A stretch of 64,000 bases of DNA from a virus. Below the pieces are notes generated by a model. It did no database searches and had not been told where the DNA came from. It saw only the letters and a list, made by a program, of their open reading frames with translations. The position numbers and the translations under genes are program-made. Shown one piece after another: positions 4,235 through 54,200 of the stretch; within the stretch, counting starts at the first letter, position 1; every line of letters begins with the position of its first letter. Where the stretch lies: positions 10,841 to 74,840 of IMG/VR virus record IMGVR_UViG_3300035691_000003. One strand, given 5' to 3'.

Positions 4235-4258
4235 GCAACCGACGCCCCGCGCGTACTT

Positions 4259-4321
4259 GCCACTGATTGAGTTGATGCCGTCCTTGACTGGAACCATCAA
4301 CTGAGTCAGTGGCTTTTCTAC
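4259..4321 (+). terminator. long hairpin with T-tract upstream of scaffold gene (terminator/attenuator or processing site)
   Basis: GCCACTGATT-g-AGTTGATG / CATCAACT-g-AGTCAGTGGC followed by TTTTCT. Confidence 0.55.
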
Positions 4322-4342
4322 TTTAGGCCACCGGCGACCACT

Positions 4343-7097: not shown

Positions 7098-7109
7098 AGG
7101 AGGGCATAA

Positions 7110-7448
7110 ATGAATAACCAGACATCACCTTCCTTTATCTCCGACAACATCAGTTCCACCAACGCGGTGAAGGTTAATCCCACTGCCGCGTATACGGTGG
7201 GGCCAAACGACAACTACATTGTCTGCGGGGGTAACTCGCTGGCAATCACGCTGGATTCAACCAGCAATTCACCTGTCTACATCACGTCCATCGACGGCAC
7301 CACGCAACGTACGGGCTGCACTGTCAAGATAGTTATTCCGGCAGGCACCCAGGACTTTGTGATTGCCGACGGAGGATGTGCAGCCAAGTGCATCCGTCTC
7401 GGCAGCGGGCCGGAATGGATTGTAATTGGAGCCAAGACCGCTTCGTAG
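7110..7448 (+). CDS. putative capsid decoration protein, paralog 1
   Basis: AAGGAGG RBS; YTVGPNDNYIVCG motif shared with 7509..7844. Confidence 0.6.
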   Translation: MNNQTSPSFISDNISSTNAVKVNPTAAYTVGPNDNYIVCGGNSLAITLDSTSNSPVYITSIDGTTQRTGCTVKIVIPAGTQDFVIADGGCAAKCIRLGSGPEWIVIGAKTAS

Positions 7449-7508: not shown

Positions 7509-7844
7509 ATGCCAAATAACATCACCCAGCCCGTTCGTCTCAGCGATGGAGCGGCAAACAAGGCGGCGGGGCAGGTAATCACAGGTGCGACCTACACGGT
7601 TGGCCCGAACGACAACTTTATCATCTGCGGTGAAGATAACACGGTGGTCACGCTGGACGCCGACAGTAACTCTCCGGTTTATGTCAGCACCATCGAGGGA
7701 ACGACTGCCCACACAGGCTGCACGGTCACGGACGGTGTCGTGGCCTTTACGGTTGCTGATTCAGGCTGTGCCGTTGAGTGCGTTCGCTTTGGCCCGACAC
7801 AGGAATGGGTCGTCGTAGGCGCAAAAACAGCCGCCGCCGTATAG
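7509..7844 (+). CDS. putative capsid decoration protein, paralog 2
   Basis: Clear duplicate of 7110..7448 (YTVGPNDNF, SNSPVY, EW..VGAKTA). Confidence 0.6.
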   Translation: MPNNITQPVRLSDGAANKAAGQVITGATYTVGPNDNFIICGEDNTVVTLDADSNSPVYVSTIEGTTAHTGCTVTDGVVAFTVADSGCAVECVRFGPTQEWVVVGAKTAAAV

Positions 7845-7857
7845 GTATCGAAGCAAA

Positions 7858-8796
7858 GTGACCGATTCACCGTATAACGACCAGAAACGATGGGCTGAGG
7901 CTGGCATCTTCAAGGCTCCGCTGTTTGACGCTCCGTCTTTCCAGCGGCAGATCGACAGGATTGTCGGCCTCAGCCCGTCAGGTCAACCTATCGTCCGTCT
8001 GCTCTGGGCTTGGGACGCGCGTCGCTGGGAGAACGTCGCCTGGGACCAGTGGGGTAATGCCACGGCAGGCGAGTGGCGGCAGAAATACCGCGCCCTGACC
8101 ATCGACATCGGCAACGACGACTACGTGGACATTGCACCGCCGAGGTGGGTGCTGGAGGAGCGGTACGAACCGCAGGCCGTGGCCGAGTCATGGGAACTGA
8201 CCCGCTACCGGTTGAAGATAGTCGAGCCAGTCCCTATCGCCTGCCGCTACTGCAAGTCACCGGGGCGCTTCTATAGTATCGACGAGCTAATCTCAATCTT
8301 CGCCCGCTGGGACATCAGTCAGGTTCATGACGGCAAGGTATTCGTCCACTGGGTTGATACCGACCGCTCCGAAGGCCATCTGCTCGCCTGTCGCTTCTGC
8401 AACAATGACACCGAACTTCGCACCGTGCGGCAGGATGTTTGGGGCGAGGTGCCGCGTGATGGGTGGTACAACCTGTTACCACACATCGGCATCATCGCCG
8501 AGCACTCCCACGGGTGCTGCAAGCGCGCGGCGGAGGAGTTTGGCGAGGTCTGCTACGGCACGTACAAGGAGCCTGATGGACGGGAGCTGAAGCGGCTGAA
8601 GAAGGCCATTAGCAAGCGCAACCAGGAAGCAGCCACCAACCCGCACATCCGCCCCGAGCTGGACGCCGTCGCATTGGAACAAGCCAAGCGCTGGGGCTTG
8701 CAGATGATGGCCGACCGGGAAGTGAAGAAGCGGGGAGAACTGGCGGAGATTCGCCGGGCGCATCGGCCCAATAACAATGTTGTTTATTCAATTTGA
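7858..8796 (+). CDS. hypothetical protein with CxxC motifs
   Basis: 312 aa ORF in structural operon. Confidence 0.7.
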   Translation: MTDSPYNDQKRWAEAGIFKAPLFDAPSFQRQIDRIVGLSPSGQPIVRLLWAWDARRWENVAWDQWGNATAGEWRQKYRALTIDIGNDDYVDIAPPRWVLEERYEPQAVAESWELTRYRLKIVEPVPIACRYCKSPGRFYSIDELISIFARWDISQVHDGKVFVHWVDTDRSEGHLLACRFCNNDTELRTVRQDVWGEVPRDGWYNLLPHIGIIAEHSHGCCKRAAEEFGEVCYGTYKEPDGRELKRLKKAISKRNQEAATNPHIRPELDAVALEQAKRWGLQMMADREVKKRGELAEIRRAHRPNNNVVYSI

Positions 8797-8944: not shown

Positions 8945-10053
8945 GCGCAGTCTTAGACCAACCAAAACCGCAAATCTTCGAGGCCGTCAACTACTTCGAC
9001 AAGCGCGTGCTTGGCTCAAACGTGAAGCGCTGGGTTTGGTTTCCCGGTGACTTAATCGTCCCGGCGCGCAAGTCGGAAATCGACTGGCTGAAGGTGGGCG
9101 GCGAAGAAACCACCTCCCCCTGCCTGCAACGCTACGGGCGCGGGTTTGTACCGCGCGGATTGGCGGCCCTACTGGAACTCGGCGGTGAGCCAATCCCTAT
9201 GCGTCACCTCGGTGACTTGCAGGCCGTCGCGTGGCAGGGCATCCCACTCAACGAGAACGCAGTGAAGAACAACTTCGGCTTTGTGCCGGTCTACCCCGGT
9301 GACGGGTTGCGTGTGCTGCGCCGCTACTCACTCAACGATGGCGGCATTCGCAAAGGGCTGGACGAAGACACCGCGCTGGTGGGCAAGGAATGGGACGAGT
9401 GTCACAACGAAGAGAGCACCGGCATTCTCGACGTAATCGAACAGGCGATGTACGGCGATGGTATGTCCCCGACCCTTAGCGGACTGGAAGACCAGATTCG
9501 CTTCGCCCGCACCGACGATTCCCGCGTGGACCTCGGCAAGATGAAGGCCGACCGCCTGCGCATGTGCGACGAATTTCGTAACTGGGCCTCGCGCAAAATC
9601 GCCTACGAGCACGGGCTGCTCAAGTCCGGCACCGTGGCGATTGCTACCGATGCGGTGGGAGCAGTCGGCGGGTGGTCCTACTCCTACTCCCCTATCACCG
9701 AAATGCTGCTCCAGCAACTTGACATTCCCCGGCAGGATCAGCCGTTGCAGGAGATGGCCCGGATGGTAGCGCAGGTCAGTCAGCAGCCTGCCGCTCAGCC
9801 GCAAGGCATCACTGCCGTAGACATGGAAATCTTCGAGCGTAAGATGGATGAGCGGTTGGCAAAGGCACGGGAAGCAGACGCCGCGCGGATTGCTGAACTG
9901 GAGGCGCAACTGGCAGGCGGCGAGAAGTCCGACGACGCGCCCAAGACCTACACCTGCGAGCACTGCGGCGACGTGGTGAAGGCTACAGGCAAGGGCATTC
10001 ATCTAGGCGTCCACTGCCGCGTGCTCCACCCGAAGACCGAAACAACCGAGTGA
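8941..10053 (+). CDS. hypothetical protein with C-terminal C2H2-like Zn finger
   Basis: YTCEHCG...HLGVHCRVLH. Confidence 0.7.
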   Translation: MSAVLDQPKPQIFEAVNYFDKRVLGSNVKRWVWFPGDLIVPARKSEIDWLKVGGEETTSPCLQRYGRGFVPRGLAALLELGGEPIPMRHLGDLQAVAWQGIPLNENAVKNNFGFVPVYPGDGLRVLRRYSLNDGGIRKGLDEDTALVGKEWDECHNEESTGILDVIEQAMYGDGMSPTLSGLEDQIRFARTDDSRVDLGKMKADRLRMCDEFRNWASRKIAYEHGLLKSGTVAIATDAVGAVGGWSYSYSPITEMLLQQLDIPRQDQPLQEMARMVAQVSQQPAAQPQGITAVDMEIFERKMDERLAKAREADAARIAELEAQLAGGEKSDDAPKTYTCEHCGDVVKATGKGIHLGVHCRVLHPKTETTE

Positions 10054-10061
10054 GGTGATGC

Positions 10062-10826
10062 GTGCCGACACTCCAGCAGATATGCACCAACGTCAGGCTT
10101 CTCGCTGACGATCCGCTTCCGCAGAAGCCTTCGCTGCGGCGCATTCTGCTGGCCGTCACGCAATCCACTCAGTCGCTCTACAATCAACTGGAGAACACCG
10201 GCGCGGCATGGTCCATTAAACCCGACTACACACTGGCCGTCAGCTCCGGCACCTCCGACTACCTGCTCGCCGTTGACTCGTCCTACGGCAAGCCGATTCA
10301 GGTGCTCACCTACTACCCGTCTAATCAAGCCTACATCCAGCGCTACGTTGACTTCGTCGAGATGCAGGACTTGAACTTCGACTGGCCCTACCCGGTCAAC
10401 ATGGCGAACTATGTGCTGAACGATGGGTCGAACTGCACTGCCATGCGGATGGGGTTCTACTATCGCGACGACGGCAGCCGCTGGGTGCGGGTGCTGCCAC
10501 GTCCCCAACTAACCGCCAGCTATCTCATCACCTTCGCCGGGGGCAACTGGACAGAGAACGCCGGGATTGAGGACTCGCCGGTGCTGAGCCAGTTCCACCC
10601 GTTGGTGGAGTACTGGGCCACTGAGTCGGTGCTGCCTTCATGTCAATGGACCAACGACCAGCGGTACAACATGGACCATCGTAAGGAACTGGCTATGGCG
10701 CTGAAGAATGACGAGGCACGTATCGCCGACGAGTTTCAGCGCTACTGTCGCAGTCTCGTTGACGACCGCATGAGCCAACGGATGTCATCGCTGGACGGGA
10801 CGATAGATTATGGAGGCTGGTGGTAG
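10062..10826 (+). CDS. putative head-tail adaptor
   Basis: MPTLQQICTNVR start, VLPRP motif and size typical of adaptor proteins. Confidence 0.55.
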   Translation: MPTLQQICTNVRLLADDPLPQKPSLRRILLAVTQSTQSLYNQLENTGAAWSIKPDYTLAVSSGTSDYLLAVDSSYGKPIQVLTYYPSNQAYIQRYVDFVEMQDLNFDWPYPVNMANYVLNDGSNCTAMRMGFYYRDDGSRWVRVLPRPQLTASYLITFAGGNWTENAGIEDSPVLSQFHPLVEYWATESVLPSCQWTNDQRYNMDHRKELAMALKNDEARIADEFQRYCRSLVDDRMSQRMSSLDGTIDYGGWW

Positions 10827-20670: not shown

Positions 20671-20913
20671 ATGGCGTTCTTTGGCGGCGGCAGTGGAGGA
20701 GGTGGCTCGGTGGCTATAGGACTGGAAACCGCTACGCCTGCGGTGGGTGACGGCATAGAGACCCAGTTTGTCTTCGTCGGTACTCCCGTACTGGTGATGT
20801 GCAACGGGGTGGTCTATAGCCCGGACAACTGCACGGTGGCAGGTACAACGGCAACCATTCCGGTGCCGCCTGAAATTGGACGGCAGATAACAGCGCTGAC
20901 GACCACAGGGTAA
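20671..20913 (+). CDS. small structural protein
   Basis: Gly linker, GDGIETQF motif. Confidence 0.5.
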   Translation: MAFFGGGSGGGGSVAIGLETATPAVGDGIETQFVFVGTPVLVMCNGVVYSPDNCTVAGTTATIPVPPEIGRQITALTTTG

Positions 20914-20925
20914 GGGAGGGTTGAG

Positions 20926-21777
20926 ATGCCGAGAATACAACCGGAGCAACTAAAGGTGGGAGCTGGTCCATGGCATACCGTGCCCAAGTACGGCGTCGGG
21001 CCTCCTTACGAACTGGAAGCGTCGCGTATCACCGACGACGGTACGGACATCAGCCTGCCTACCCTGAGCTTCCAGGTCGGCGATCTCCAACTGGACAGTA
21101 ACGGCACGCGAATCCGGCTGACGGATGTAAGCAAGCTCATCGAGCTTTACGTGAACCGGAATGACGCCGAACACCGATCCACGTTCGCCATGGGCGGTTC
21201 TCCGGGTATCGCGACGCTGGAAGCCAGTGATGGAACGGTAGTCGCTGAACTGTCCCTGGCTCCGGCGTCCTCCGAGGTTCGATTGGGGTTCACCGCCGCT
21301 GTCGGCGTTCTCCGACTGAACGCGGCCACGACCTACCTGCCATCCAGCACGACAAACATCGGGACGGACGCGAATTCGCAAACGGCCATCGTGGGGACCG
21401 TGACACGTAATGGAGTACCGCTGGGGACCGCATCCTACGTGCAGCAGTTGGCGCAGATTGCAAGTATCAGTCCGACTGACATTCTAATCGGCGGCGCGTC
21501 GCTCGGCGCGGGTCTGTACCGCCTCTCCTACTACCTCGTAACCACCGTCGCAGGCACATCCGGCACGGTGAAGGCGACGTTTGACTGGACTGACGCGGGA
21601 GCCGCGCGGGTAGTAGACTCAGCAACCATCACCTTCGGCACATTGGCCGACCCATCCTCGGGAACGCTAATCATCCAGCTAACTGGCGCAGACCCGATTC
21701 GTTACTCAACCACCGTGGCTGCCGCCGTCGGCGATCCACAATACGCGCTGTACATAGCACTGGAGCGATTGCAGTAA
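20926..21777 (+). CDS. tail-associated hypothetical protein
   Basis: GGAGG RBS, beta-rich 283 aa. Confidence 0.6.
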   Translation: MPRIQPEQLKVGAGPWHTVPKYGVGPPYELEASRITDDGTDISLPTLSFQVGDLQLDSNGTRIRLTDVSKLIELYVNRNDAEHRSTFAMGGSPGIATLEASDGTVVAELSLAPASSEVRLGFTAAVGVLRLNAATTYLPSSTTNIGTDANSQTAIVGTVTRNGVPLGTASYVQQLAQIASISPTDILIGGASLGAGLYRLSYYLVTTVAGTSGTVKATFDWTDAGAARVVDSATITFGTLADPSSGTLIIQLTGADPIRYSTTVAAAVGDPQYALYIALERLQ

Positions 21778-25182: not shown

Positions 25183-26802
25183 ATGAAAACCCTGCTACTC
25201 ATCCTACTGCTCCCCGCCGCGCTGCTGGCCCAGTCGGCCAACACCTTTCGCCAAGTCACCTTTGCCAACCTCGGCGTGCCGAACGATAACAACGTGCGCT
25301 ACGTGACGGACGGCGGGGTTGATTCAGTGACCGGCAACTGTACCAGCGGCGGGTTTGGAGCCTATGCCTTCCGGGTGCAGACCGGCGCGACGACTTTTGT
25401 CTGGCGCTGCTCGGTGTTTGTGCCGGGTGGTGGAGGCACCGGGAATGGCGACGTGTCCAGCGATACGGCTACCGCATCAGTCGGCCAAGCGGCGGTCTTC
25501 TCCAACACCACCGGCAAGCAGATTGGCCGGTTTACTTCGTCGGGCTGGGTCAAAGCAACCGGCGGAGTGTTGACGACGGTGGCGAGTGTCAGCCTGGCGT
25601 CGGATGTCACCGGCAATCTCCCTGTGGTGAACTTGAACTCTGGCACTAACGCATCATCCGGCACCTTCTGGCGCGGCGACGGGCAGTGGGCTACACCGGT
25701 GGGTGCTGGTGATGTCAGCTCCAACACTGCCGTCTCAGTCAACGACGAGTTGGTCCTGTTCAACAGCACCAGCGGCAAGTCGATTAAGCGCGCGACGAGC
25801 AGCGGGCTGGTGAAGCTCACCTCGGGCGTGGCGTCAACTGTCGCTGCTCCAACCGGCACTATCGTCGGCACGACGGATGCGCAACCACTGACCAACAAAA
25901 CGATTGACGGCAGCCTGAACACGATTACCAACGTGTCGCTGGCAACCGGCGTAACCAGCAACCTGCCAGTGACCCGGCTCAACTCCGGCACCGGGGCAAG
26001 TGGCTCAACCTTCTGGCGCGGCGATGGGACGTGGGCGACTCCCGCCGGGGCGGGCACCGTGACGAGTGTCGGCTTAGCACTGCCCAATATCTTCTCCGTC
26101 AGCGGCACACCGGTGATATCGTCAGGGACGCTAACTGCAACCCTCGCCACTCAGACGGCCAATACCGTGTTCAGTGGGCCAACCACCGGCAGCGCCGCCA
26201 CGCCCACCTTCCGCGCGCTGGTGGCAGCCGACATCCCGGCGCTGGGCGCGTCGAAGATTACCTCGGAGACAATGGCAACTGCTCGGCTGGGTAGTGGCGC
26301 GGCATCGTCGTCAACCTTCCTGCGCGGCGACCAGACCTGGGCTACCCCAACCGCCGGGGCGGGAGGCTCGACCACCCAATTTCAGTTCAACCTCACCGGC
26401 GCACTGGCAGGAGCGTCCAACTTCCTCTTCACCCCAGCCACCGGGCAGATGACGGCCAATCAGGCAGGTAATGGCAACAACGTCTTCTACGGCAAGCGCG
26501 TGACCGACACCGGTCCTACCGGCAACTTCTTCCTGTTCCAGAACCAGGCAGGCACGGTGGACTTGTTCAAGGTGGACGTGACTGGGGCGGTGATACTGAA
26601 TTCAGCTACTGGCATACAGGATGTGCTGACGGTGCAGAAGGGGGTGCAGCTCACCACCGGCACGAGACCGACGTGCGACTCGACGACGCGCGGGACGTTC
26701 TGGTACGTGGCTGGAAGTGCCGGGGTGGCCGACACCGTGGCGGTGTGCGCCAAGAATTCTAGTGATGTTTTTTCGTGGGTTAGTATCGCCGCGATTCCAT
26801 AA
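25183..26802 (+). CDS. tail-fibre-like protein with N-terminal signal peptide
   Basis: [17 protein letters not shown]; three LxSG..ASS.TF[WL]RGD..WATP repeats; GTVTSVGL. Confidence 0.7.
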
Positions 26803-30453: not shown

Positions 30454-31059
30454 ATGTTCGACTGGTTGTGGAAGATGACCAAGACCAAAGATGAGAGACA
30501 GTTTGAAATCCTCGACCAGCGGCTAATCGACATTCAGGGCAGGTTGAAGAAACTGCGCGTGGAGATCGACCAGCAAGCCAATAGCAACCAAGGAAAGTTT
30601 GACAATCTTACAAAGTTAGTAGTGGCCGAGACAGAACAGATCCTTAAGGCCATTCAGGCAATCCAACCGGCCCCGGTGCCGAATAAATCTCTGGAGGTAA
30701 CATTCGTGTTTAAAGTAGCAAACGATCATCAGGACGAACCGTATTCCATCGCCATCGGCAGCGTGACGGACGCGGAAGGCGAGACGCTTCCCGACACCAG
30801 AGGACTGACCGTGGAAGTCACGTCAAGCGATGATACGGTTGTAAGCCCCGGCTTCGACTCGGCGACGAATTCCGGCATCGCCCACTTCGGTAAATCCGGC
30901 GTTGCGTCACTGAACGCAGTCGTGAAGAACGCCAAGGGTGACATTCTCGGCAGCGGCGCGGCGGATTTTACTGTGACCACCGGCGATCCCGCAGCGGTGA
31001 GCGATGTCAAGATCTCGTTTGGCGGACTGACTGAAGAAGCACCGCCAGTGGAGGGCTAA
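30454..31059 (+). CDS. coiled-coil + Ig-like domain protein
   Basis: N-terminal coiled coil; TSSDDTVV Ig-like segment. Confidence 0.6.
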   Translation: MFDWLWKMTKTKDERQFEILDQRLIDIQGRLKKLRVEIDQQANSNQGKFDNLTKLVVAETEQILKAIQAIQPAPVPNKSLEVTFVFKVANDHQDEPYSIAIGSVTDAEGETLPDTRGLTVEVTSSDDTVVSPGFDSATNSGIAHFGKSGVASLNAVVKNAKGDILGSGAADFTVTTGDPAAVSDVKISFGGLTEEAPPVEG

Positions 31060-31062
31060 CCA

Positions 31063-31236
31063 ATGCCACTCGCATACATCTTCTGGCTGCTCATCATCCT
31101 CTGGGCCATCTTTGGGTTGGGTTATCCCTTCGTTGTGGAGACGCCCAACCGGAGGATTATCAGCGGCGGCAATCTGCTACTGTTCGTGCTCATCGTCCTG
31201 CTGGGTTGGCAGGTGTTTGGGAGTGCAGTGAAGTAG
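31063..31236 (+). CDS. small two-TM membrane protein (holin candidate; not in track)
   Basis: MPLAYIFWLLIILWAIFGLG...LLLFVLIVLLGWQVFGSAVK. Confidence 0.6.
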   Translation: MPLAYIFWLLIILWAIFGLGYPFVVETPNRRIISGGNLLLFVLIVLLGWQVFGSAVK

Positions 31237-31260
31237 TCACACCAACAGGAGACATCGTGC

Positions 31261-31848
31261 TTGCCCGGAAACAGCCGACAGGGAATAGGCGTAGACGCAA
31301 TGGGTGGGCCGGTAATCGACCCAACCAAGAACGTTCTCGACTTAACCAACGCGGCCAACAAGCGGCAAGACGACCTCCGCGAGATGTACAACCGCTTCAT
31401 CGAAGCGTCGATTCGGCGGTTAGATGAAACGGTCAGACGGGTTGAGCAGATAGCGGACCTAAGAGCACAGCACGCGCACGATGTCAGCATGATCCATCAG
31501 GCCCATGACCGTGAAATTCACAAGATGGAGCAGGACAAACTGGCGGCATTTCGGGCCAGCGATGAGATGGCGAGGATCACCGAGGCGAATCGTAGTCTCG
31601 CGGCAATCCAGGTGGTTGAGCGAACATTGAACTCCACGGCAACCGCACTGGCAAGCCAGAACGCCGAGAACAATGTGGAAGTTAATCGACGACTGGCAGC
31701 ACTTGAGAAGTCCAGCTACGAAGGCGCAGGTAAGGGGACGGGAGCCAAGAATACCGTCACCTACGTGGTGCTGGCAGTCGGCATGGTAATGTCGCTAATA
31801 ACAATCGGCTCGGTAATAGTAGCAATCGCTTTCGCAATCAGACATTAG
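31261..31848 (+). CDS. coiled-coil protein with C-terminal TM (lysis-associated?)
   Basis: AGGAG RBS, C-terminal hydrophobic helix. Confidence 0.6.
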   Translation: MPGNSRQGIGVDAMGGPVIDPTKNVLDLTNAANKRQDDLREMYNRFIEASIRRLDETVRRVEQIADLRAQHAHDVSMIHQAHDREIHKMEQDKLAAFRASDEMARITEANRSLAAIQVVERTLNSTATALASQNAENNVEVNRRLAALEKSSYEGAGKGTGAKNTVTYVVLAVGMVMSLITIGSVIVAIAFAIRH

Positions 31849-31868
31849 AACAAGGAGCAATCGCCCAG

Positions 31869-32036
31869 ATGAGTAGCAAACATGAACAAGACCACCCAGC
31901 ACCGCAAGGACTGCCGGATGAGACTCCACCGACAACCAAGCCGGTTGGACCACCGGATAAACCCGGCCCACTCGGCGACGTTCCCATCCCGCCTGAGCCG
32001 CCCAAGCCGCCTGACCCTCCCGGTGGAGGCAACTGA
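31869..32036 (+). CDS. small Pro-rich protein (55 aa; not in track)
   Basis: AAGGAG RBS; MSSKHEQDHPAPQGLPDETPP...PPGGGN. Confidence 0.45.
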   Translation: MSSKHEQDHPAPQGLPDETPPTTKPVGPPDKPGPLGDVPIPPEPPKPPDPPGGGN

Positions 32037-32041
32037 ATCAA

Positions 32042-32509
32042 ATGAGCGCCCGTCCGCTGCCGCAGGTAGATGACACGATCTACACCGTCTCACTATGGAA
32101 AGACGAACTCGACTCAACTTACAAGTGGTGGCAGAAGGCGTTCTATCGGTTCCTCTACCTGCCCTTCAATGAGTTCTCGCTGAAGGTCATCAAGATACCC
32201 AAGGCGACAGAGATTGAACGCGAGGGCGATAAGGTCCGCTTTCGTATCTGGGAAATCATCGGCCACTACGGTTCACCCGACGAGGCGGACATCACCTGCA
32301 CGACTCCTCGGCACTGTTACAAAGACTATCCCTACGGGCGGCGCTTCCCTGACATCAGCGGACAGATAGGCCATGGCCCGGTCTTCCCTCGCGCTAAAGA
32401 CCCTCGTAAGCGTATCCAGCCAATCATGGACACGACGTTTCTACCGCGCCGTGAAGTAAGCCAAATGAGAAATGAAATCGCCCGGCTGAATCAGGTACTG
32501 GACCAATGA
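32042..32509 (+). CDS. hypothetical protein
   Basis: 155 aa ORF in operon. Confidence 0.6.
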   Translation: MSARPLPQVDDTIYTVSLWKDELDSTYKWWQKAFYRFLYLPFNEFSLKVIKIPKATEIEREGDKVRFRIWEIIGHYGSPDEADITCTTPRHCYKDYPYGRRFPDISGQIGHGPVFPRAKDPRKRIQPIMDTTFLPRREVSQMRNEIARLNQVLDQ

Positions 32510-32515
32510 TCGACC

Positions 32516-32992
32516 ATGCAAGAGAACCCGACAGTTCCTCATGTTCTAATACTGGTCTCGAACTTCATTACAGCAATCCTTTCAATTGGCGGAACCCTAA
32601 CCGCTCTATGGTTTAAGGGGAGACGCGAGCCTGCCGAGGTAAGGCGCATAGACGCCGAGACCCATAACCTGCAAGTCACCACAGAAATTGCCCCGATAGG
32701 AATCAGTCTCGAATTACTGCGAGAACTCCAGGCAGTCAGAAAGAAAGCTGAGGACCGTGCTGAGCAGTCGCTATTGAAGGAAGACCAGATGCGCGGGCAG
32801 ATCCTCTTCTGGCGCAACAAGGCTGAAGAGTTGGATGGACAGTTGATTGAGTCTAAGGAAGAGGCCGCTCAGCTACAGACCCGCTATAACCTGAAAAAAG
32901 CCGAACTGGAAAAGGCGATGGGCCTACTGCAAATAAAGCACGTCAGCTACGGTGACGCGGACCAGCCGAAAGATCGCAGCGGAGAAAAATAG
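32516..32992 (+). CDS. N-terminal TM + coiled-coil protein (holin/spanin-like)
   Basis: ILVSNFITAILSIGGTLTALW, then coiled coil. Confidence 0.6.
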   Translation: MQENPTVPHVLILVSNFITAILSIGGTLTALWFKGRREPAEVRRIDAETHNLQVTTEIAPIGISLELLRELQAVRKKAEDRAEQSLLKEDQMRGQILFWRNKAEELDGQLIESKEEAAQLQTRYNLKKAELEKAMGLLQIKHVSYGDADQPKDRSGEK

Positions 32993-33108
32993 AGGCAGCA
33001 CCCGCCTCCCACAGCCAGCACCACCTCGTCGTAAAAGGAGAACAATCTCGGAAACTTAGTCGTTCCGTTGGCTGGAAGTGTAGCACAGGTGGAGCGGGCG
33101 AGCAGATA

Positions 33109-33142
33109 GAAAGACGACGCCAGTCACCCGACGCCGCCTCCC
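33109..33142 (-). terminator. hairpin at convergence of late (+) and early (-) transcription
   Basis: Minus strand: GGGAGGCGGCGTCGG-GTGA-CTGGCGTCGTCTTTC, 15 bp with G:U pairs and a GNRA loop. Confidence 0.5.
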
Positions 33143-33214
33143 ATTCCAAAGTGGTCTAGGTCTGTAGATTTTTGCCTGGTTGTCTCCTCCTTTCAATTGA
33201 TGGATTACGAACAC

Positions 33215-33588
33215 TGGTTGATTGCGTCGTGGATTCAAACCACGTTTGGGACTTCAGTAGTCAGGCACAGTCCCACCGTCAATAGGACAGATGCTGCTAT
33301 CCACGCGAGCATGGTCGCCTGGGGTCCAACTCGGCCCGTTGCTTGCCGATTTTCACAGCAGTTCTCCCCACCTCAAGAAGTCTCTGGTCTCGCCGAATGG
33401 GCTTAGCGTGCTCCAGTAGGATTACTCCACTGGTCCACGGTACTAACGAGCCGCCGTGAAAGGTTGTACTAAGTGCTTAACACCGGAGGATCGTTACCTA
33501 CCTCCCAGCCTTTCCCTCGTGCTCTCCCGCTGCACTCCTGAGTTCCTGTCACTTCCGAGCGCTTTCGTCAGAGCGCCACCGCAATCAA
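33215..33588 (-). ncRNA. large (374 nt) RNA with tRNA-like shell and 3' CCA
   Basis: TTGATTGCG/CGCAATCAA closing stem followed by CCA; D-like GCGCT..AGCGC; T-like CGTGG-TTTGAAT-CCACG; TATAAT just upstream. Confidence 0.6.
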
Positions 33589-33598
33589 AGAATTATAA

Positions 33599-33682
33599 CG
33601 TGGACCACTCCCTCCGGCTTTCACGGAGCAGCGCCAAGGATTCCGATGACAAGGCACGCGCTTATCGCGCCAGTGGCCCACG
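33599..33682 (-). ncRNA. cloverleaf-like RNA with GGGCCAC/GTGGTCC-A acceptor-like stem
   Basis: Three internal arms: GCGC/GCGC, GTGCC/GGCGC, CTCCG-TGAAAGC-CGGAG. Confidence 0.55.
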
Positions 33683-33691
33683 AGATTCAGC

Positions 33692-33943
33692 CTAGTTCAC
33701 AATCGGGCAACCATGGGCTTCCATGCACCCCTTGTAAATACCGGCGGCGTGCGTCACGCATCCCTTGAACTGGTCTGGGGTTATATCGTCTCCGTAGACT
33801 ATTACACAGCTGAGCATGTCGGCGTCGGCAAGGCCCTCACATGCGGCGTTAGCCTGATCGCAGGGAATAAACGCAGCCGATCCAGTGGGCGTGACTAGCA
33901 GCCCTATGGTGAGCAATGCCAGTATGATTAGTTTTCGTCTCAT
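33692..33943 (-). CDS. secreted six-cysteine peptide
   Basis: AGGAGA RBS; signal peptide MRRKLIILALLTIGLLVTPTGSAA; 6 Cys in mature part. Confidence 0.75.
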   Translation of the reverse strand: MRRKLIILALLTIGLLVTPTGSAAFIPCDQANAACEGLADADMLSCVIVYGDDITPDQFKGCVTHAAGIYKGCMEAHGCPIVN

Positions 33944-33981
33944 TAGTCTCTCCTGTCTAAAGGGTTAATGGTCAGGCAGTC

Positions 33982-34069
33982 TCTCAACCCACCAGTTCCG
34001 CCGTCACCGCACTCTACATTGTCACGTCTCCCGAATCGGCGACAGCCACCTCTACGCGGTGGGTTGAGA
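33982..34069 (-). ncRNA. stem-closed RNA unit
   Basis: Perfect 12-bp TCTCAACCCACC/GGTGGGTTGAGA. Confidence 0.5.
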
Positions 34070-34076
34070 AGGGGGA

Positions 34077-34162
34077 TTGCGCGGCCCCCGCAGGCGGTGG
34101 GTTCGACACGTTACGACCACCTCTCCCCGGTCTGTCCTCTCGTGCCAGAGTAAGCCGCGCAA
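34077..34162 (-). ncRNA. stem-closed RNA unit
   Basis: TTGCGCGGC/GCCGCGCAA; internal CTCT..AGAG and GGTGG..CCACC; preceded by TTGACAATTGAAT. Confidence 0.5.
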
Positions 34163-34185
34163 ACTTGATTCAATTGTCAATTCAA

Positions 34186-34261
34186 CCTTGGACCACCGCC
34201 GCCACCTTTTCAGACGGCTTGGGGTTCATCGCCAAAGATGCCGTAACCGAGTGGCCCAAGG
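34186..34261 (-). ncRNA. stem-closed RNA unit with GGGCCAC/GTGGTCC-A stem
   Basis: CCTTGGGCCAC/GTGGTCCAAGG; inner ACGGC..GCCGT. Confidence 0.5.
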
Positions 34262-34265
34262 GTCG

Positions 34266-34346
34266 GTCGAGTAGGATGATTTCAAACCGCAAGTCCGAAG
34301 ACCTACGATGAAGCAGGTGTTACCACTCTGCTCCATCCTACTCGAC
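34266..34346 (-). ncRNA. three-way-junction RNA unit
   Basis: Perfect 13-bp GTCGAGTAGGATG/CATCCTACTCGAC; inner AGCAG..CTGCT and C(TTCG)G tetraloop hairpin. Confidence 0.6.
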
Positions 34347-34351
34347 TGCGA

Positions 34352-34497
34352 TTGCGCGGGGCCGGGCTTGATACCGGCTACGGCATGTCGAGTGGCGTTC
34401 TGCCGTGTTGTCACGGCTCTTAGCTAGCATCTTCGGAACCTGCCATGCCTTCCTATCCGAATACTCAGTAGCGTTTCCTTCAACGCCGTCCGCGCAA
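34352..34497 (-). ncRNA. tRNA-like RNA with expanded anticodon domain (skipping-rope-like architecture)
   Basis: TTGCGCGG/CCGCGCAA; D-like GCGTT-GAAGGA-AACGC; T-like GCCGG-TATCAAGC-CCGGC; preceded by TTGACAACTGAAT. Confidence 0.65.
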
Positions 34498-34515
34498 ATT
34501 CAGTTGTCAATGGCC

Positions 34516-34688
34516 GTTTGCAGTGGCTCAGGTCGCTCGGCGTCCTCGTTCTCGTGCCTACCTCGCAGTTGACTCTACTGCTTCAGGCTTGTTTTTCCGA
34601 GATAAGGCAGATGGAGACGAGAGTCTTTACAGCCTCGCTCCACAGTCGTTTACCGTGGCTTTTACCGCCCTCAATGACCACTGCAAAC
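34516..34688 (-). ncRNA. multibranch RNA unit (about 173 nt)
   Basis: 11-bp GTTTGCAGTGG/CCACTGCAAAC; inner CCACGGT..ACTGTGG, TGCCT.ATCTCG/CGAGGT.AGGCA, GCAGT..ACTGC. Confidence 0.55.
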
Positions 34689-34695
34689 ATCTGAT

Positions 34696-34756
34696 GCGGG
34701 ACTTGTCTGGAGCGCCTTCGTTCTCCCCGCTGGTGTTACCAGCCAGCGAGTCCCGC
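34696..34756 (-). ncRNA. small stem-closed RNA unit
   Basis: GCGGGACT/AGTCCCGC; inner GCTGGTAACACCAGC. Confidence 0.45.
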
Positions 34757-34909
34757 GCAACTATGCCGCGACTTGTATTAACGGCGCTCGCGGCCAACGA
34801 CGAGCGGTTCAACGTAGCCGCCACCGTCGGGTTCTCCGTTCCCGCTATCTGGTCATCCTGTCAATTCAGGCGGTTGACGGGAGCACTTTAATTACATCGT
34901 CCTCCCCAG

Positions 34910-34989
34910 ATCACTGGTGCCCCACCCATCGTTCAGTGTCCGCTTGCGCGGTGAATGCTCAGTCTATTGACGAGCGAGTGGGGCGTGAT
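34910..34989 (-). ncRNA. stem-closed RNA unit with GNRA tetraloop
   Basis: ATCAC.GCCCCA/TGGGGC..GTGAT; inner GCTC.GTC-AATA-GAC.GAGC and CCGC-GCAA-GCGG. Confidence 0.5.
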
Positions 34990-35142
34990 TCAAATATCCA
35001 TCGCGCACTCGTGTGTACACTCAGCGCAACAGTCGCAAAAGTCATCGCTGTCATTGTCGTTTATCTCAACCGCGTAAGGACAGCTATGGGATTCGTCCGT
35101 TGCTTCATTTTGGCAGCCCGCTCGACCTGTGCATTTAGCCAT
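34990..35142 (-). CDS. small Cys-rich protein (50 aa; not in track)
   Basis: MAKCTGRAGCQN...HSCPYAVEINDNDSDDFCDCCAECTHECAMDI. Confidence 0.65.
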   Translation of the reverse strand: MAKCTGRAGCQNEATDESHSCPYAVEINDNDSDDFCDCCAECTHECAMDI

Positions 35143-35148
35143 GGTAGC

Positions 35149-37560
35149 TCACCTTACCTCCGCACCCTGCACCGCCCGCCGCACCCCACGCCGCACCTCC
35201 CAGTCGTCCCGCTCCCTCGTCCCTGGCAATCCCGGCACAGTGAGTCGCTCAGCGTCGGGTAGAGTGCCCAGTGCCACCACCAGCGCCGCCAGTAGTCGGG
35301 CATTCTGCCGTTCAGTAAACAGGGCACTGATTAACGAACCTTGCCGTGCTTCGCGATACAGCAGCAGCGCTTGTCGCAGTCCAATCTTCACCGGCTCACA
35401 TAAGTCGCAGAAGACGAGAGCGACGAGGTGGGTGGATGGTAGGGTTAGTGGTCGAGGTTGCGGCCTCTGGGCCAGCGCGACCAGTAGAGCGAGTTCAGCG
35501 ACTATCATCGTCGTCGTCCTCCCGCTTCCCATTCAACTCATCAATCGCTAGTGCTAACTCTCGCTCATGCTCCGGCATATTCCCCGGCCAGTTGGGCTGC
35601 ACCTCAGCACGCCAGCGACGGGCGGCGGTGAGCAGGCGGGTGGTGGCGTCAGTGGTTAACTCGGGCATCTGGCATCTCCTTTCGCTTTCACCTGTCGCAG
35701 CCGCTTACGATCACCGATGAACATCCCCTGTGCGGCAATCTCGCTGAACGCTACAGCTTTACGGTCTGGCTCCAACCGCTCCAACAATTCCTCCCGGCGA
35801 AACTCACAGAAGAGGCAATAGTCGTCGTAGTGGATGGTGCCACAACAGCGGCATTCACTCATCGGTCGCCTCCCCCACTGTACACAACGGCCCTGGTTCT
35901 CCATCAGGATCGCCGTCCCAGCACAGCCAGCAGCGACGTGGATCGTGGTCCTCTGTCTTGGTCGCATTGCAGTGACGACAAGTTACAGGCTCGCACTCAT
36001 ACGGGTGCATGTCCTCGGCGGTACAGGCGAAGCTCATATCAGCACCTCCGGTTCCGCGCAAAGAAAGCAGGCGACATAACTGCCGTCGGGAAGCGGTAGG
36101 AACCCGTCTTCACAGCAGTGTTCACTATCATCAAATAGCCAGCCATCGCCACGGCAGGTAGAACATCCATCTCCATCAGCCTGTTCCCCGGTCCCGCTAC
36201 AGTCGCGACAAACTACTTCGGCAGGCAGCAGGAATTCAAACGGCCAGTCAGCGGGAAAGTCGAACGATTGCGGGTAAGGGTCGCGAATGTCAGTGTCGTC
36301 GATGGCGGGAATCATTGGGTGGCTCCTGTCTCGTCTTCATTGCAAAGTAAATTACCCTGAATATGGTCAGCGATTGCCCGCAGACGCTCCACGCCGTCAC
36401 CAAACTCCTGAGCGCTGGCCGGGTCGGCCATTTCCTGCACCTGTCGCAATAGTTCGTGGGGTTCCATCAGTCGCCTCCTTCCGGCAGCGCTTGCAGAGGA
36501 TTCGCGCCAACTATTAGATCCACTTCCTCTTTGCGAAGCACCGACGCACAGGAAGCCAGTGAAGTAGCAATCAGCAACGACAGGCCCGCAGTGTACCGAG
36601 CAGCGTCTTGCAGTGCCTCGATTTCAGACTTCCCCTGGCCGATGATATGGAAATCCTCGAACCACACGTCCCAGGGATCGTCAGCGCCCTTCGTCTCGGT
36701 TACGTAGATTGTACCCACGTCGCTCTTGTATTTGCTCATCTCAACCTCCCGTGCTCGCAGCCTGTGTCGGAGCGACGAACTCATGATAGTTCACATACCC
36801 CAGTGTCACATCGTGAATCCCGTCGTTCTCCAGTCCCTTGCACACCTTGCTGTCAATCTCAAAGGCACACTTGTCACCGTTGCTCATCAGCATCTGTAAT
36901 CGCCCACTAACATCGGTGGAGAACTGGTGCTGGCTATCCCCGTCACCGTGGTCCCCGTCGTCTGGGTCGGTGCTGCCACAGATGGCGCACATGGGTTTGC
37001 GCTGCTGGGCCAGATTCTTGTTAAGTGTCGCTGCCAGCCCGGTGGCACGCGCCGATCTGTTGCCAGTGGCGCGGGTGCGCTTCTTGACGCCCTTGCCGGT
37101 TCCCTTTGTCGGCTGCAACGACTCGACCAGGAGATCGCGCTCACTGTCGGACAGCCCGCGCAAGGTGGCCAGCAACGCGGATTCGTCGTCGCTGAACTGA
37201 CGTTGTAGACTGTAGACTTTAAGCACGTTTCGCAGATTCACAATAATTGCTCCTTCCTTTGCTTGTTAGCGGCCCATTGTAAGAACGTCTCAAACTTCCA
37301 GTCAGTCAGGCTCTCAGGGCCAAATGTTACTGAATGACCGCGCGTTTCCATCTCAGCTAGAAACTCTTTCATCAGCGCGCGGAGGTAGTCTAAGTCGGCG
37401 GCAATACCCACTCGTGATGGAAACTGGCGCAGATTGGATTGGGCAGGGGTGGTCATAGATCGTCGTCCTCGCAGCACTTACAGCAGGTAGCGCACTTGCG
37501 ACAGTCGGCGCATTGATAAACTTCGCAGTCACAGCCGTAAGGTGATCCCTCTGACAGGCC
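35149..37560 (-). other. cluster of about 9 small early hypothetical ORFs, several Zn-finger-like (e.g. 36034..36315, 36741..37241)
   Basis: Tightly coupled minus-strand ORFs with GGAG-type RBS. Confidence 0.6.
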
Positions 37561-51050: not shown

Positions 51051-51072
51051 CCAATTCTCCACGCACGCAGAT

Positions 51073-51225
51073 AACTGGAACCAATGGAACAACTCTTTTA
51101 CTGGCAATTACTTAGTCACTGGAACCAGCACTGGAACTAACTGGAACTTGGTTCCGGTGAGGTTCCACCCTTGGTTCCATTACGTAACTACAACAAACTA
51201 CTGGACTTAGGTCATTGGTTCCACA
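51073..51225. repeat. iteron-like cluster, putative replication origin
   Basis: 5x TGGAAC followed by 4x inverted GGTTCC, directly after helicase. Confidence 0.6.
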
Positions 51226-51274
51226 ATGGGGTATGCGTAGAGGTTTTTTGGGGGCAAAAATCCAGCAAAATCGA

Positions 51275-54200
51275 CTATTTTGGCCTTGGTCTGAGCCGGT
51301 TCGCTATTTGTCTCCACCACCGCAGACCAGCATCCCCGTCGGTCGGCATGGCGATGACCAGTCTGAGCCTCCTCGTCGTGTCCTCATCCACCGGCCAGGA
51401 CATGCGACTGGTCTGGTGCCGGGGTCTGACGGCGAGCAGTTGGTCAATGTCGGCCAGGTCGGTGGGAGTTAGAACTTTTCCCATCGTTCCTCCTCGTCAA
51501 GTAGTACCAGCCAACGGGAGAGCAACGCTGCTGCCTCGTCGTCGCCATGTTTCAGGCAGTAGACCATCGCGCTGAATACGTGCTCATAGGGAGTGCGCCG
51601 GTGGCGGCGGATGCGCGCGCGGGAGTCGTCGAGGCGTGGGCCGGGGATGTCGGCGGTTCTCACCGGCGCACTCCAGCGGCGGCGGCGTCAACCGCTTTAC
51701 GCAGCTCGTCACGGCCCTTGATCAAACCCGGCGTGGTTAACGCGAATTCCGCGCGTTTGATAAGTTCGGCAAGCAATCGCCTCAACTTCACTACTGCATT
51801 GTGGTCGGCGACGATTTGCTTCATTACCGCCCGGTCGTCAGTGTTCAGTTCACCGTTCGGGCCATGCGCTTCAACTCGCGCCATAAACCGAAGGTTACCA
51901 GTGCGGGTGACTGAGACGATTAGTCCCGACTCTCGCGCTTCCCATTCATGCCACTCCCCCAGGCCAGCATTCGGGGCGGGTTTAAGGATGTCGTCGGTGA
52001 CGTATTCCACCCTCCCGCGCATGCCTCGCCCGGTGAATCCGCCAGTCGCAACGGGTCCGCAGCCGTCCTTCGGCCTGAACCCTGCCGCTTGTTCGGCGTT
52101 GACGAACTGCTCTTGTGTGACTTCCTGCCATTCAGTCTGATGGTCAGCTTTCAGGTAGTAGCGCTCATTCATCATCGTGTTCCTCTCACCGCGACTCAGC
52201 ACAGCATTCTGATAGGGTTTATCGTTGAACATTGGTTGCTAATCTCCTTCCTCGTCTTCCGTTGCCGACTCCTGAATCTCGCGCACTACGTCGTCTTCGG
52301 CGTAAACAAAGTGCAGGTTCTGTTCGGCGTCGCGCCAGATTTCATCATAAACAGCCTGCTTAATGGCGACAGTATCCATGTCCCGGTAGTCTTCCGGGTC
52401 GATGTCGATGGATCTCGTTGTTCCCTGCCACTCCCATTGGTCAAGTTCGTATTCGACTTTCATCATTGTCCTCGTCTCTGCTCAAATAAGCCTCTCTCAG
52501 CCGTTTTCCAAATCGGCAGTCTGATTTCACCTATCGCCACTTCCGACGCCTCCAGCCCGTTCTAATCGCTCGCCAGAGGCATCGTAGCAGCCTCTCACAG
52601 CCCGCAGGAGCCACGATTGGCCCCAGAGACGGCTTGCGCCTTGTCCGGCGGGATTCTGACGCCCCCGCCGTCCTAAACTCGCCTCTCTCGCAATAGACGC
52701 CGCATAATTGCCACGTTGACGTTCATCCACTTGTCACCAAACGGGAAGAAGTACCAGTTACGCCACAGAGCGATTTTCTTTTGCCGTGACCGAAACGGGT
52801 AAAAGTCAGGCAGGCGCATCCATTGCGGCATTGCAGCCATGTGCTCTGCCAGTGATTCCGAAAACCGTTTACGCCAGTTACGGCGATAGTTACTACGAGC
52901 CCATCCGAGAGCTTGTTGCTCACGTTCTGTCAGTGGTTGTTTCATTATCGCCATCACTTCCCGCCCCGCGCCTGCCTGAGCGCCTGTTCAATCTTATCCA
53001 CGCTGATTGCAAATCCTTCGCGCAGATCATGGATGTCAAAGTCACGCGCCTTTTGCCAGGTTCGCAGGGCGGCAAGCTCATCCTCCAGCGCCCGGACGAG
53101 CGCGGCGTGAATCGGCACCGCCAGCGCGATTGCTTCTGCCGTAGTATCAGTTTTAATACCCGTTGCAACCACGTTTCCAAAATGGTCGAGCACTTGGTAG
53201 TTCTCGTCGCCGTACTTGCGATAACTCCAACTTGCTCCGTCACCCTCCCGCAGTCCAGCATCGGGCGCGGGCGAGGATGTGACGCAATCCTGACAGGGGA
53301 TATAAACCGCTGTCTGATGTCGTTCCGGGTATAAACAAGTGTAGCGAATGCCGTTAGTCGCCTTGCCCGCCGTCGCCGTCTTCGTTATGGTGGTAAGCCT
53401 TCGCCGTTCGATGTCTGACTCCGCTACCTTCTCTCGCTCGTGGTCAGCCAGCATCGCGGCAGTCTCTTCCTCTGTTGCCCGTGTTCCTCGCATGGTGGTC
53501 ATCCCCATCCCTCCTTCACGCTGCCATCGGCATTCAATCCCGGACAGTCATGCGCCGTCCGCTCGTTGGTTATCGCGTCAACCCGCTCGCCGGTGTCATC
53601 GTCGATCCAGTAGTTAGCCGGGTCACAGGGATCGCATGAGCCGGACCATTCGTTTGTGGTTGTCGTTGTTGCCGTGGTGGTCATAGTCATTCCCTTTCAA
53701 ATGTAAAGTGGTTTCCGGTATAGCTGAGGCAATTCCTCGTAGGGTTTCTGATCCAGTGAATCGATCATCGCCTTTACCTCGCGCAGTCTGAACGCCCATA
53801 TCAGCTTGCCGTCTTTGAACGCCTCGAAACGGCTCATCGTGATATGACCGCCGCATTTCATGATTTCCCATCCCTTGTAGCTACGTGTCGTGCTCATCCC
53901 TCACGCTCCTTCGTTGTTGGTTGCCGCTGCTTCCGCTCAACCTCCCGGCACAGTGGGCAATGGTTCTTTGCGTGAATCCCATTGCCGTAGTAGTGGTCTA
54001 AACAAATCTTCATCTCAACCACGTCGGCAACCTTCACGGAGAATCCGCGCGCTCCAGTGCCGGGGTTTGAGAACTTCATCCTGTAGCCATTGCCGTTGTG
54101 TTCAATCGTTACCATTGTCATCACCTTCTCTGCGTTATCCATTCCGAATGCGCAGCCCTCGGACTTGAAAATCTCAATCGATTACAACGTTGCCCGCTCT

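Follow-up and report, generated by a model that had tools for sequence, protein, structure and literature searches.

What does a phage keep in a segment of its genome that holds only one credible gene? The question is raised by positions 33215–34989 of a 64,000-nt stretch of viral DNA, referred to below as the window, which comprises bases 10841–74840 of a 74.8-kb IMG/VR virus record (IMGVR_UViG_3300035691_000003) judged to be complete. A rhizosphere metagenome is the sole DNA run in which it occurs, and the phage is from soil. The segment is the distal end of the leftward early gene block and lies between two convergent blocks. A first-pass annotation, made from the sequence alone, had described it as a tandem array of about 10 RNAs, each closed by pairing of its own ends, and stem-closed units were indeed found at those places, on the minus strand. 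We propose that the segment is probably an island of minus-strand RNA genes at the end of the early operon, the self-closed modules of which would be processed as small RNAs that engage a conserved host component. Comparison of sequences shows at least four modules to be under selection as folded RNA, and the one at 34352–34497 to belong to a large phage-borne family, here called R3. The R3 RNAs have a constant tRNA-like chassis and a variable structured cargo at the place where a tRNA has its anticodon arm.

The R3 unit of the window (minus strand) is closed by the helix TGCGCGG/CCGCGCA, with one extra C before the 3′ strand, and contains a 5′ hairpin GGCGUU-GAAGGA-AACGCU, about 85 nt of cargo, and a 3′ hairpin GCCGG-UAUCAAGC-CCGGC. 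Two units in a related phage, G005, share with it a GGCGUK-GAAGGA-MACGC hairpin just after the 5′ closing strand and a GYYGG-UAUYAAGC-CCRRC hairpin just before the 3′ closing strand. In IMG/VR, 77 viral stretches contain the exact 21-nt motif, against about 2 expected by chance, and almost all of them have the same layout: a terminal helix of 6–21 bp that is different in each phage, one linker base, the 5′ hairpin, a variable and usually structured cargo of 40–400 nt, and the 3′ hairpin, which abuts the 3′ closing strand. The consensus blocks are GGCGUG-GAWGGA-CACGC for the 5′ hairpin and GCCGG-UAUCAAGC-CCGGC for the 3′ hairpin, and the 21-nt and 17-nt blocks are near-invariant across phyla. 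A covariance model was made from 28 members, with the window and its close relatives excluded, and the window unit obtains a significant score with this model of the other members, 67.5 bits (E = 1.2e-11). The same unit has a helix of at least 6 bp abutting the 3′ hairpin, the 5′ GA(A/U)GGA hairpin 1–2 nt after the closing strand, and the exact 3′ motif RUA-GYYGG-UAUYAAGC-CCRRC. The model also recovers the two copies of G005 and, in G004, a divergent one. The model gives 82 matches in 80 loci, most of which were fetched by the exact family motif. Second copies lie within 1 kb at six loci, four of these being two near-identical pairs (L153/L188 and L166/L186). Paired members about 100–900 nt apart, in L153/L188, L166/L186, L196 and L141, form small arrays in unrelated phage contigs.

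The pairing of R3 was examined in two alignments. In the seed alignment, 99.6% of the cells are paired and two-sided changes occur at 13 of the 17 pairs; in 75 distinct sequences, pairing reaches 98.8% and such changes occur at 14 of the 17 pairs. Much lower scores are obtained with shuffled and slid controls, no shuffle reaches the observed score, and in a blind mutual-information scan the top ten column pairs are exactly predicted base pairs. Two caveats attach to these values: the terminal helix of the seed was picked by complementarity, and the 3′ hairpin was in part fixed by the search pattern. Neither applies to the 5′ hairpin, which covaries at all 5 of its pairs.

The elements of R3 follow one another in tRNA order. 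The terminal helix is stacked on a 5-bp T-like stem, a linker of 1–2 nt leads to a D-like hairpin, the loop of which keeps the invariant GG, and the cargo takes the place of the anticodon arm. Substrates of RNase P form a class in which a 7-bp acceptor helix is followed by RCCA. A 7-bp helix directly followed by ACCA is present in the unit at 34910–34989, in that at 33215–33588, and in the relative in phage G006 of the unit at 33599–33682; it is absent from the cloverleaf of the window and from R3. Loose descriptors were uninformative, a “tRNA chassis” giving 720 matches in eight genomes and a “T-arm + 7-bp stem + NCCA” giving many by chance. Some R3 cargos hold a canonical-looking T-arm of the GGUUCGAAUCC type (L145 3751–3883, minus strand; L155, L157, L168, L192 and L193), and ARAGORN calls a “tRNA-???” inside the L145 member.

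We estimate that R3 has at least about 100 members, distributed over uncultured phages, cultured phages and prophage-like regions of bacteria, and that it is apparently undescribed. It corresponds to no Rfam family, and a full-text literature search by the exact motif strings found no paper describing it. Among cultured phages, the temperate Caulobacter phage DMCA has a member (L240, PQ480021, ca. 25554–25686; 80 bits), the Komagataeibacter phage phiKX1 has one after its tRNA-Met, and phiKX2 also carries one; in these phages the RNA is unannotated. Of 29 bacterial genomes matching the motif, the model confirms 16–17, from Alpha-, Beta- and Deltaproteobacteria and Acidobacteria. The 21-nt motif also occurs by chance in coding sequence, for example in a TonB-receptor gene in Trabulsiella, and only the 16–17 model-confirmed genomes are counted here. 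A search of complete E. coli genomes did not find R3. At 13 of 78 sites the RNA lies within 1.5 kb of a tRNA, in some cases inside a tRNA array, which fits a comparison with phage tRNA clusters. The first-pass annotation had drawn that comparison for the whole array, and it holds to this extent. No neighboring protein is conserved among 102 R3 sites. Because the blocks are near-invariant across phyla and no partner gene accompanies them, we suggest that R3 touches something universal in the host.

Three further units are supported by comparison with related phages. Protein anchors in IMG/VR gave seven close relatives, with helicases 65–85% identical, and 26 more distant ones, and the seven close genomes were taken whole. 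The unit at 34264–34348 (minus strand, model R1) is a three-way junction in which a stem of 13 bp encloses two hairpins, one whose loop contains GUAA and one capped by UUCG. Its homologs in G005 and G006 form the same three-way junction, and compensatory changes are seen at 10 of 28 pairs among the three sequences. The members score 83–99 bits on the given strand and 15–25 bits on the complement (99 and 25, respectively, for the window unit), and this strand-biased score, together with the G-U pairs, fixes the strand of R1 as minus. R1 was not found in the 26 more distant phages, in IMG/VR by pattern, or in the metagenome collection. In G006 (IMGVR_UViG_3300035088_000004), there is a second ORF-poor island with 6–7 stem-closed units, at 25870–26700 on the minus strand (L044 5870–6700), which is there the strand of the late genes. 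In that island, a TGCGCGG...CCGCGCA unit stands immediately 5′ of the R1 copy, in the same order as in the window. An RNA ligase gene (Pfam PF09414, E = 2.5e-19) lies a few genes before the RNA region of G006, at L044 878–1492 on the plus strand (G006 20878–21492), with a homolog in G005; this ligase was not found in the window phage. A 493-aa gene adjoining the G005 units was considered as a possible Ro60, and the idea failed, as the gene gives just a weak Sortilin/BNR-like match.

The unit at 33599–33682 (minus strand, model R2) is an 84-nt cloverleaf. Besides its closing stem it has three hairpins: one of 4 bp around a GAUAA loop, one of 5 bp around a loop of 17 nt, and another of 5 bp around the loop UGAAAGC. 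Its one detected homolog, in G006 (L044 2136–2215) before a secreted-protein gene, is a 77-nt cloverleaf whose 7-bp stem TGCCGTG/CACGGCA is followed by ACCA. The two members score 84.5 and 77.2 bits with the R2 model, and a search with the model found no third member. Eight two-sided compensatory changes separate the pair, five in the 7-bp closing stem and one in each of the three hairpins, and the loops are conserved. The unit at 33982–34069 (minus strand) is an 88-nt long hairpin with a 12-bp outer helix, a conserved internal loop and a 10-bp inner helix, and it ends 38 nt before the start of an 83-aa gene. Its homolog in G007 (L003, ca. 5842–5940) has the same place, just before the 83-aa gene. 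By direct reading, this pair shows six two-sided compensatory changes, and all five one-sided changes keep the pairing, four of them as G-U on the minus strand. Covariation among homologs, by which the structured-RNA interpretation was to be judged, is seen as compensatory changes in four units; no homologs of the other units were found in the sequences searched. When nhmmer was run with the single units on the eight related genomes, only weak leads appeared, for three units.

The folding of the array was compared with several controls. When the units are folded alone on the minus strand, z is negative relative to dinucleotide shuffles in 10 of the 11 listed stretches, with values between −1.8 and −6.5. 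From 34910–34989 leftward to 33215–33588, the z values of the units are −5.2, −3.9, −2.6, −2.6, −6.5, −3.3, −2.8, −4.7, −2.6 and −1.8. The minus strand is more stable than the plus strand in 8 of 10 units, the exceptions being 34696–34756, where the plus strand is better, and 34352–34497, where they are equal. Closing stems of 10 bp or more, with no more than 2 G-U pairs and an interior of 30–170 nt, were then counted: the minus strand has 8 in 33200–35000 (4.4/kb), in comparison with 71 in the other 62 kb (1.1/kb); no comparable excess was seen in 33200–35000 on the plus strand. Choosing units by their closing stem biases z downward, and the 71 stem-closed units from the rest of the window were therefore used as controls. 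The z of whole units is −4.1 in the region and −2.2 in the controls (Mann–Whitney p = 0.0015), and that of the interiors alone is −1.6 and −0.13 (p = 0.004). This lower z comes mostly from the units 33982–34069 and 34266–34346. RNALfold also finds a few sites of equal stability in other parts of the genome, so that thermodynamics alone cannot make the region unique.

These results bear out the assignment of the structures to minus-strand RNA and the expectation that they fold better than shuffled sequence. The C(UUCG)G and GCAA loops that had been reported are both present in the array. The interiors had been said to form neither a CRISPR nor a simple repeat, and we likewise found no direct or tandem repeat array in the region and no repeat family with regular spacing; a CRISPR array or a ToxI-type repeat antitoxin is ruled out, there being no regularly spaced direct repeats. 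The count of about 10 structured RNAs was too generous. Comparison supports four units and thermodynamics alone supports five, the unit at 33215–33588 is weak, and 34765–34886, which had been listed as smaller hairpins and is a spacer on the minus strand with z = +0.6, is unsupported as a structured unit.

Five units have thermodynamic support alone. The first, at 34910–34989 (minus strand), is a stem-closed three-way junction with z = −2.7 on the plus strand and no nhmmer homolog. Its outer helix is ATCAC/GTGAT, its inner 7-bp helix GCCCCAC/GTGGGGC is the one directly followed by ACCA, and a GCAA-capped hairpin lies inside. The unit at 34696–34760 (minus strand; 61–65 nt, 8-bp closing stem) has z = −5.1 on the plus strand and no homolog was found; the loop UGGUAACA of its hairpin is common to the first hairpin of the R1 unit at 34264–34348, as a shared 13-mer. 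The unit at 34516–34688 (minus strand) is a multi-branched RNA of 173 nt with a closing stem of 11–13 bp, a z of −0.8 for its interior, and no homolog. The 76-nt unit at 34186–34261 (minus strand) has z = −1.5 on the plus strand and is unmatched by model R2, and it has in common with the R2 cloverleaf at 33599–33682 a closing stem GGGCCAC/GUGGUCC followed by A. The 86-nt unit at 34077–34162 (minus strand) is unmatched by R3. It has the R3 member's closing helix, TTGCGCGG/CCGCGCAA, and the upstream motif, without the two conserved hairpins of R3. That upstream motif, ATTGACAACTGAAT, is at 34498–34511, with a second copy at 34168–34181 (both minus strand), and a search for it gives four matches in the window where 0.47 are expected. 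It is probably the leftover 5′ strand of a longer closing stem. The corresponding ATTGACAAYTGAAT before the two window units is read as such a remnant because the copy of the R3 unit in another phage, L182, is closed by a 12-bp helix, ATTGAATTGCGG/CCGCAATTCAAT.

The weak unit at 33215–33588 (minus strand, 374 nt) has ends that pair as TGATTGC/GCAATCA and are followed by ACCA. A T-arm-like hairpin CGUGG-UUUGAAU-CCACG lies near its 3′ end and a GCGC-UCUGACGAAA-GCGC hairpin near its 5′ end. The unit has no homolog and no tmRNA or tRNA call, and searches of it for tandem or phased repeats, a RAGATH-27 match or a helical partner gene were negative.

To which known RNAs can these units be compared? 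The checks proposed with the first-pass annotation agree that they are non-canonical. ARAGORN finds 0 tRNA or tmRNA genes in the window, with noise-level calls only at 80–85% thresholds; at the Rfam gathering thresholds cmscan finds nothing in the region, and relaxing E to 5–10 yields only noise, with no match to tRNA (RF00005) even there; and no unit contains an anticodon-like 7-nt loop. The tRNA decoys or sponges that the first-pass annotation had suggested find no support in these results. A blastn search of the region against cultured phages gave no match. The c-di-GMP-II-GCG riboswitch (RF03170) was rejected, since a single R3 member reaches 23.9 bits (E = 0.017) against a threshold of 47.9, seven other members give no match, and no downstream gene is conserved.

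Phage T4 makes two stable RNAs, species 1 and 2 (rnaC and rnaD), which are small structured RNAs of unknown function encoded within the T4 tRNA gene cluster. They are transcribed on a polycistronic transcript shared with the tRNAs and matured by the host tRNA-processing enzymes. The units described here resemble them as small structured phage RNAs in the slot of phage tRNA genes, and differ in that they are more numerous, are unrelated in sequence, and occur in a phage and relatives with almost no tRNAs, a single one being present in the eight genomes, in G005. The tmRNA and the engineered “tRNA scaffolds” place a tRNA-like shell around a large non-tRNA insert. R3 has such a shell, with an acceptor-type helix, a T-arm and a reduced D-arm, but its closing helix has neither a fixed length nor CCA. 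The 374-nt unit has the length of a tmRNA and an ACCA end; as a tmRNA it was rejected, because neither ARAGORN nor Rfam calls it, its 3:70 pair is A:U and not G3:U70, and no tag reading frame was recognized.

The closest published parallels are the irregular tRNA-like RNAs of soil and their polycistrons. Irregular tRNAs, the allo-tRNAs, and polycistrons of irregular tRNA-like sequences have been described from soil bacteria and metatranscriptomes (Mukai et al. 2017, PMC5389517). The allo-tRNAs combine a long acceptor-type stem and a 12-bp acceptor/T branch with a D-arm reduced to a tetraloop-capped stem; they retain an anticodon loop of 7 nt, possess a long variable arm, and escape the standard finders; several of them decode in E. 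coli, whereas some irregular tRNAs were judged to be non-decoding and possibly regulatory (PMC5389517). The likeness lies in the soil origin, the cloverleaf-like form with its long acceptor-type stem and reduced D-arm, the failure of standard tRNA finders to detect the RNAs, and the polycistronic arrangement. In contrast to the allo-tRNAs, no unit here has an anticodon loop, and R3 has a large cargo instead. The YrlA RNAs are likewise closed by pairing of their 5′ and 3′ ends and have the order T, acceptor-like stem-loop, D; they are encoded no more than 4 kb from Ro60/Rsr, and their stem is recognizable by a GNCGAA motif (Chen et al. 2014, PMC4201824). Bacterial Y RNAs are also found in phages, and for one member cleavage by RNase P and addition of CCA have been described (PMC4201824). 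R3 shares with YrlA the paired ends, the T-arm-like and D-arm-like hairpins and the occurrence in phages. It is nevertheless not a YrlA-type Y RNA, since its order is D, cargo, T, the GNCGAA motif is absent, no TROVE/Ro60 protein is present among the 86 proteins of the window, and R3 has no conserved neighbor. None of the other units is a canonical Y RNA either.

The array would be expressed from the leftward block, which contains replication and recombination genes (a PIF1-like helicase, a PD-(D/E)XK nuclease, an AAA_24 ATPase and endonuclease VII); the late genes run rightward up to 32992. No sigma-70-like promoter was found inside the array. Terminator-like hairpins are located downstream of it at 33112–33129 and 32991–33009 (both minus strand), and likely mark the end of the leftward transcript. 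A sequence similar to the terminator-like hairpin also comes after the arrays of L002 and L003. One long transcript fits these data, because the array has no internal promoter-like site and is followed by terminator-like hairpins. A soil metatranscriptome contains a 195-nt contig that is 100% identical to 33990–34184 and nothing else from 31000–37000. This contig begins 2 nt beyond the unit at 34186–34261 and takes in the spacer motif and two adjacent units. Pairing of the array with other phage transcripts was considered as well. The best case, between 33083–33099 and 35116–35132, the start of a 50-aa ORF 2 kb upstream on the same transcript, matches at 16 of 17 nt (94%), which is at chance level, and long-range antisense pairing was dropped because its best case is within chance expectation.

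In the proposed pathway, a single long transcript would carry the modules together with the early operon. For host RNases, the terminal helices and the ends that resemble a tRNA would then act as signals for cutting and protection, with RNase III acting on the long stems and RNase P and 3′ trimming acting on the ends with a 7-bp stem plus ACCA. The excised modules would accumulate as stable small RNAs. The invariant loops of the chassis may engage a universally conserved host component that recognizes the tRNA elbow or the acceptor/T-arm, and differences in function between phages would then reside in the cargo. More tentatively, R3 might be a natural “tRNA scaffold”, in which one invariant elbow mimic allows diverse cargos to be excised, stabilized or delivered to RNase P, the ribosome or a tRNA-targeting defense enzyme, and the island might be an early toolkit for counter-defense or take-over; we regard this extension as possible, with a good deal of doubt. 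A layout of this kind, tRNA-like and with a cargo that can be exchanged, suggests a general means by which phages could express functional RNAs. The annotation of phage genomes deals almost wholly with proteins and passes over “empty” stretches; the one described here holds several RNAs under selection. The R3 member in a phage of Caulobacter CB15 makes the question directly approachable at the bench.

Several observations weigh against the proposal of a processed RNA island. Five units are without a homolog in the sequences searched, and their interiors fold no better than shuffles; the unit at 33215–33588 reaches only z = −1.8, and 34765–34886 is unsupported. The R1, R2 and 33982-type families consist of 2–3 sequences each, complementarity was used to pick the terminal helix of the R3 seed, and ACCA is not kept between the two R2 homologs. 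Processing by RNase P is not implied for R3, because its closing helices of 6–21 bp have no fixed 7-bp/CCA end. The 195-nt contig spans two units, is unstranded, and may come from DNA carry-over; as an unstranded assembled contig, it is taken only as a hint of expression and speaks for neither processing nor its absence, and the lack of RNA cover over the other units does not mean that they are silent.

Could the units instead be parts of a messenger? Within 33215–34989 a single gene is credible, as the first-pass annotation had noted; it encodes an 83-aa secreted cysteine-rich protein and is embedded in the array at 33692–33943 (minus strand). This protein has five homologs with 57–68% identity and belongs to neither a Pfam nor a PHROG family; protein-anchored scans for it gave only L003 in IMG/VR and none in the metagenome collection. 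Seven other ORFs of at least 61 aa, on either strand, have no Pfam match and no homolog in the seven related phages, and the longest (122 aa) has zero homologs among 5.8 billion proteins. The units might be cis-acting elements of the mRNAs for small secreted proteins, as 5′ or 3′ stabilizers, RNase III sites or translational regulators, and so no free-standing RNA genes. The hairpin at 33982–34069 precedes the 83-aa gene by 38 nt both in the window and in G007, the cloverleaf comes just after the 83-aa gene in the window and just before a 98-aa secreted-protein gene in G006, and the non-coding stretches of L002, L003 and the window all flank secreted-protein genes at the end of an operon. However, the R1 copies in G005 and G006 are on the late strand or in a divergent gap, away from secreted-protein genes, R3 has no conserved neighbor at its 102 sites, and the R3 unit of the window recurs with unrelated flanks. 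The roughly 1 kb of units upstream of a single small gene is also far beyond the needs of a leader. We consider a cis-acting role unlikely as the explanation of the array.

The content and position of the array differ greatly among close relatives: L003/G007 has about 270 nt where the window has 1 kb before the 83-aa gene, and L002/G006 has about 140 nt before and about 400 nt after its own secreted-protein gene. Such variation would also be expected if the units were selfish mobile elements of a cassette-like kind, which spread from one phage genome to another, accumulate where the gap between convergent operons tolerates them, and give the phage no benefit. In L182, a 71.6-kb IMG/VR phage, the R3 unit of the window recurs with its cargo at 80.7% identity in unrelated flanks, the DMCA member sits in an unannotated gap between the transposase and integrase genes, and in one bacterial family R3 is sporadic, being present in 3 of 61 genomes, one of which has two copies. 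On the other hand, no target-site duplications were seen at the unit borders, no transposase or homing endonuclease travels with R3, and selection on the folded RNA is indicated by the invariance of the loops, by the compensatory changes in the stems and by G-U pairs that are specific to one strand. Purely selfish units seem improbable to us, and mobility and function are in any case not mutually exclusive.

A self-cleaving ribozyme in the R3-type unit, and possibly in further units, which would cut the array by itself, is very improbable: such an activity would explain the invariance without a partner protein or gene context, the GCCGG-UAUCAAGC-CCGG hairpin differs at just two loop positions from the P4 hairpin GCCGG-UCCCAAGC-CCGG of twister (Rfam clan CL00120; near-identical as GCCGGU..CAAGCCCGG), which also occurs in phages and bacteria with no fixed gene context, and the context-free spread of R3 and its pairs and arrays are typical of small ribozymes, but the twister-P1 alignment given by cmscan is partial and non-significant and concerns one member (12.3 bits against a gathering threshold of 67.2, E = 4.6, 37 of 68 model positions), seven other members and the window have no twister match and no ribozyme at E = 5, and the rest of the catalytic core, with the UA cleavage site, the AAGCNGCC loop and AUAAAAG, is missing from the R3 consensus.

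A few minor observations concern the surroundings of the array and the rest of the window. Just upstream of the array, at 34990, is the end of a 50-aa cysteine-rich ORF. The RNA regions of the window phage, L002 and L003 all contain genes for small secreted cysteine-rich proteins of 83–98 aa without a known family; besides the one in the window, these genes are located at 5431–5703 and 6001–6258 in L003 and at 6867–7163 (minus strand) in L002. A 73-nt element with 78% identity lies downstream of secreted-protein genes in L002 (ca. 6610–6690, minus strand) and L003 (6270–6345, plus strand). It contains a hairpin GYCA-GCGGCA-UGRC with one compensatory change, and only its first 13 nt recur in the window, at 34110–34122. 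Other very stable local folds, with RNALfold z of −5.4 to −6.7, are found at 4253–4322 and 7838–7994 (plus strand), 10010–10206 (minus strand) and 51056–51244 (both strands). One of these sits in the gap before a 487-aa gene at 4343, and a further stable-fold site, at 51590–51674, has an inverted repeat of 14–15 bp.

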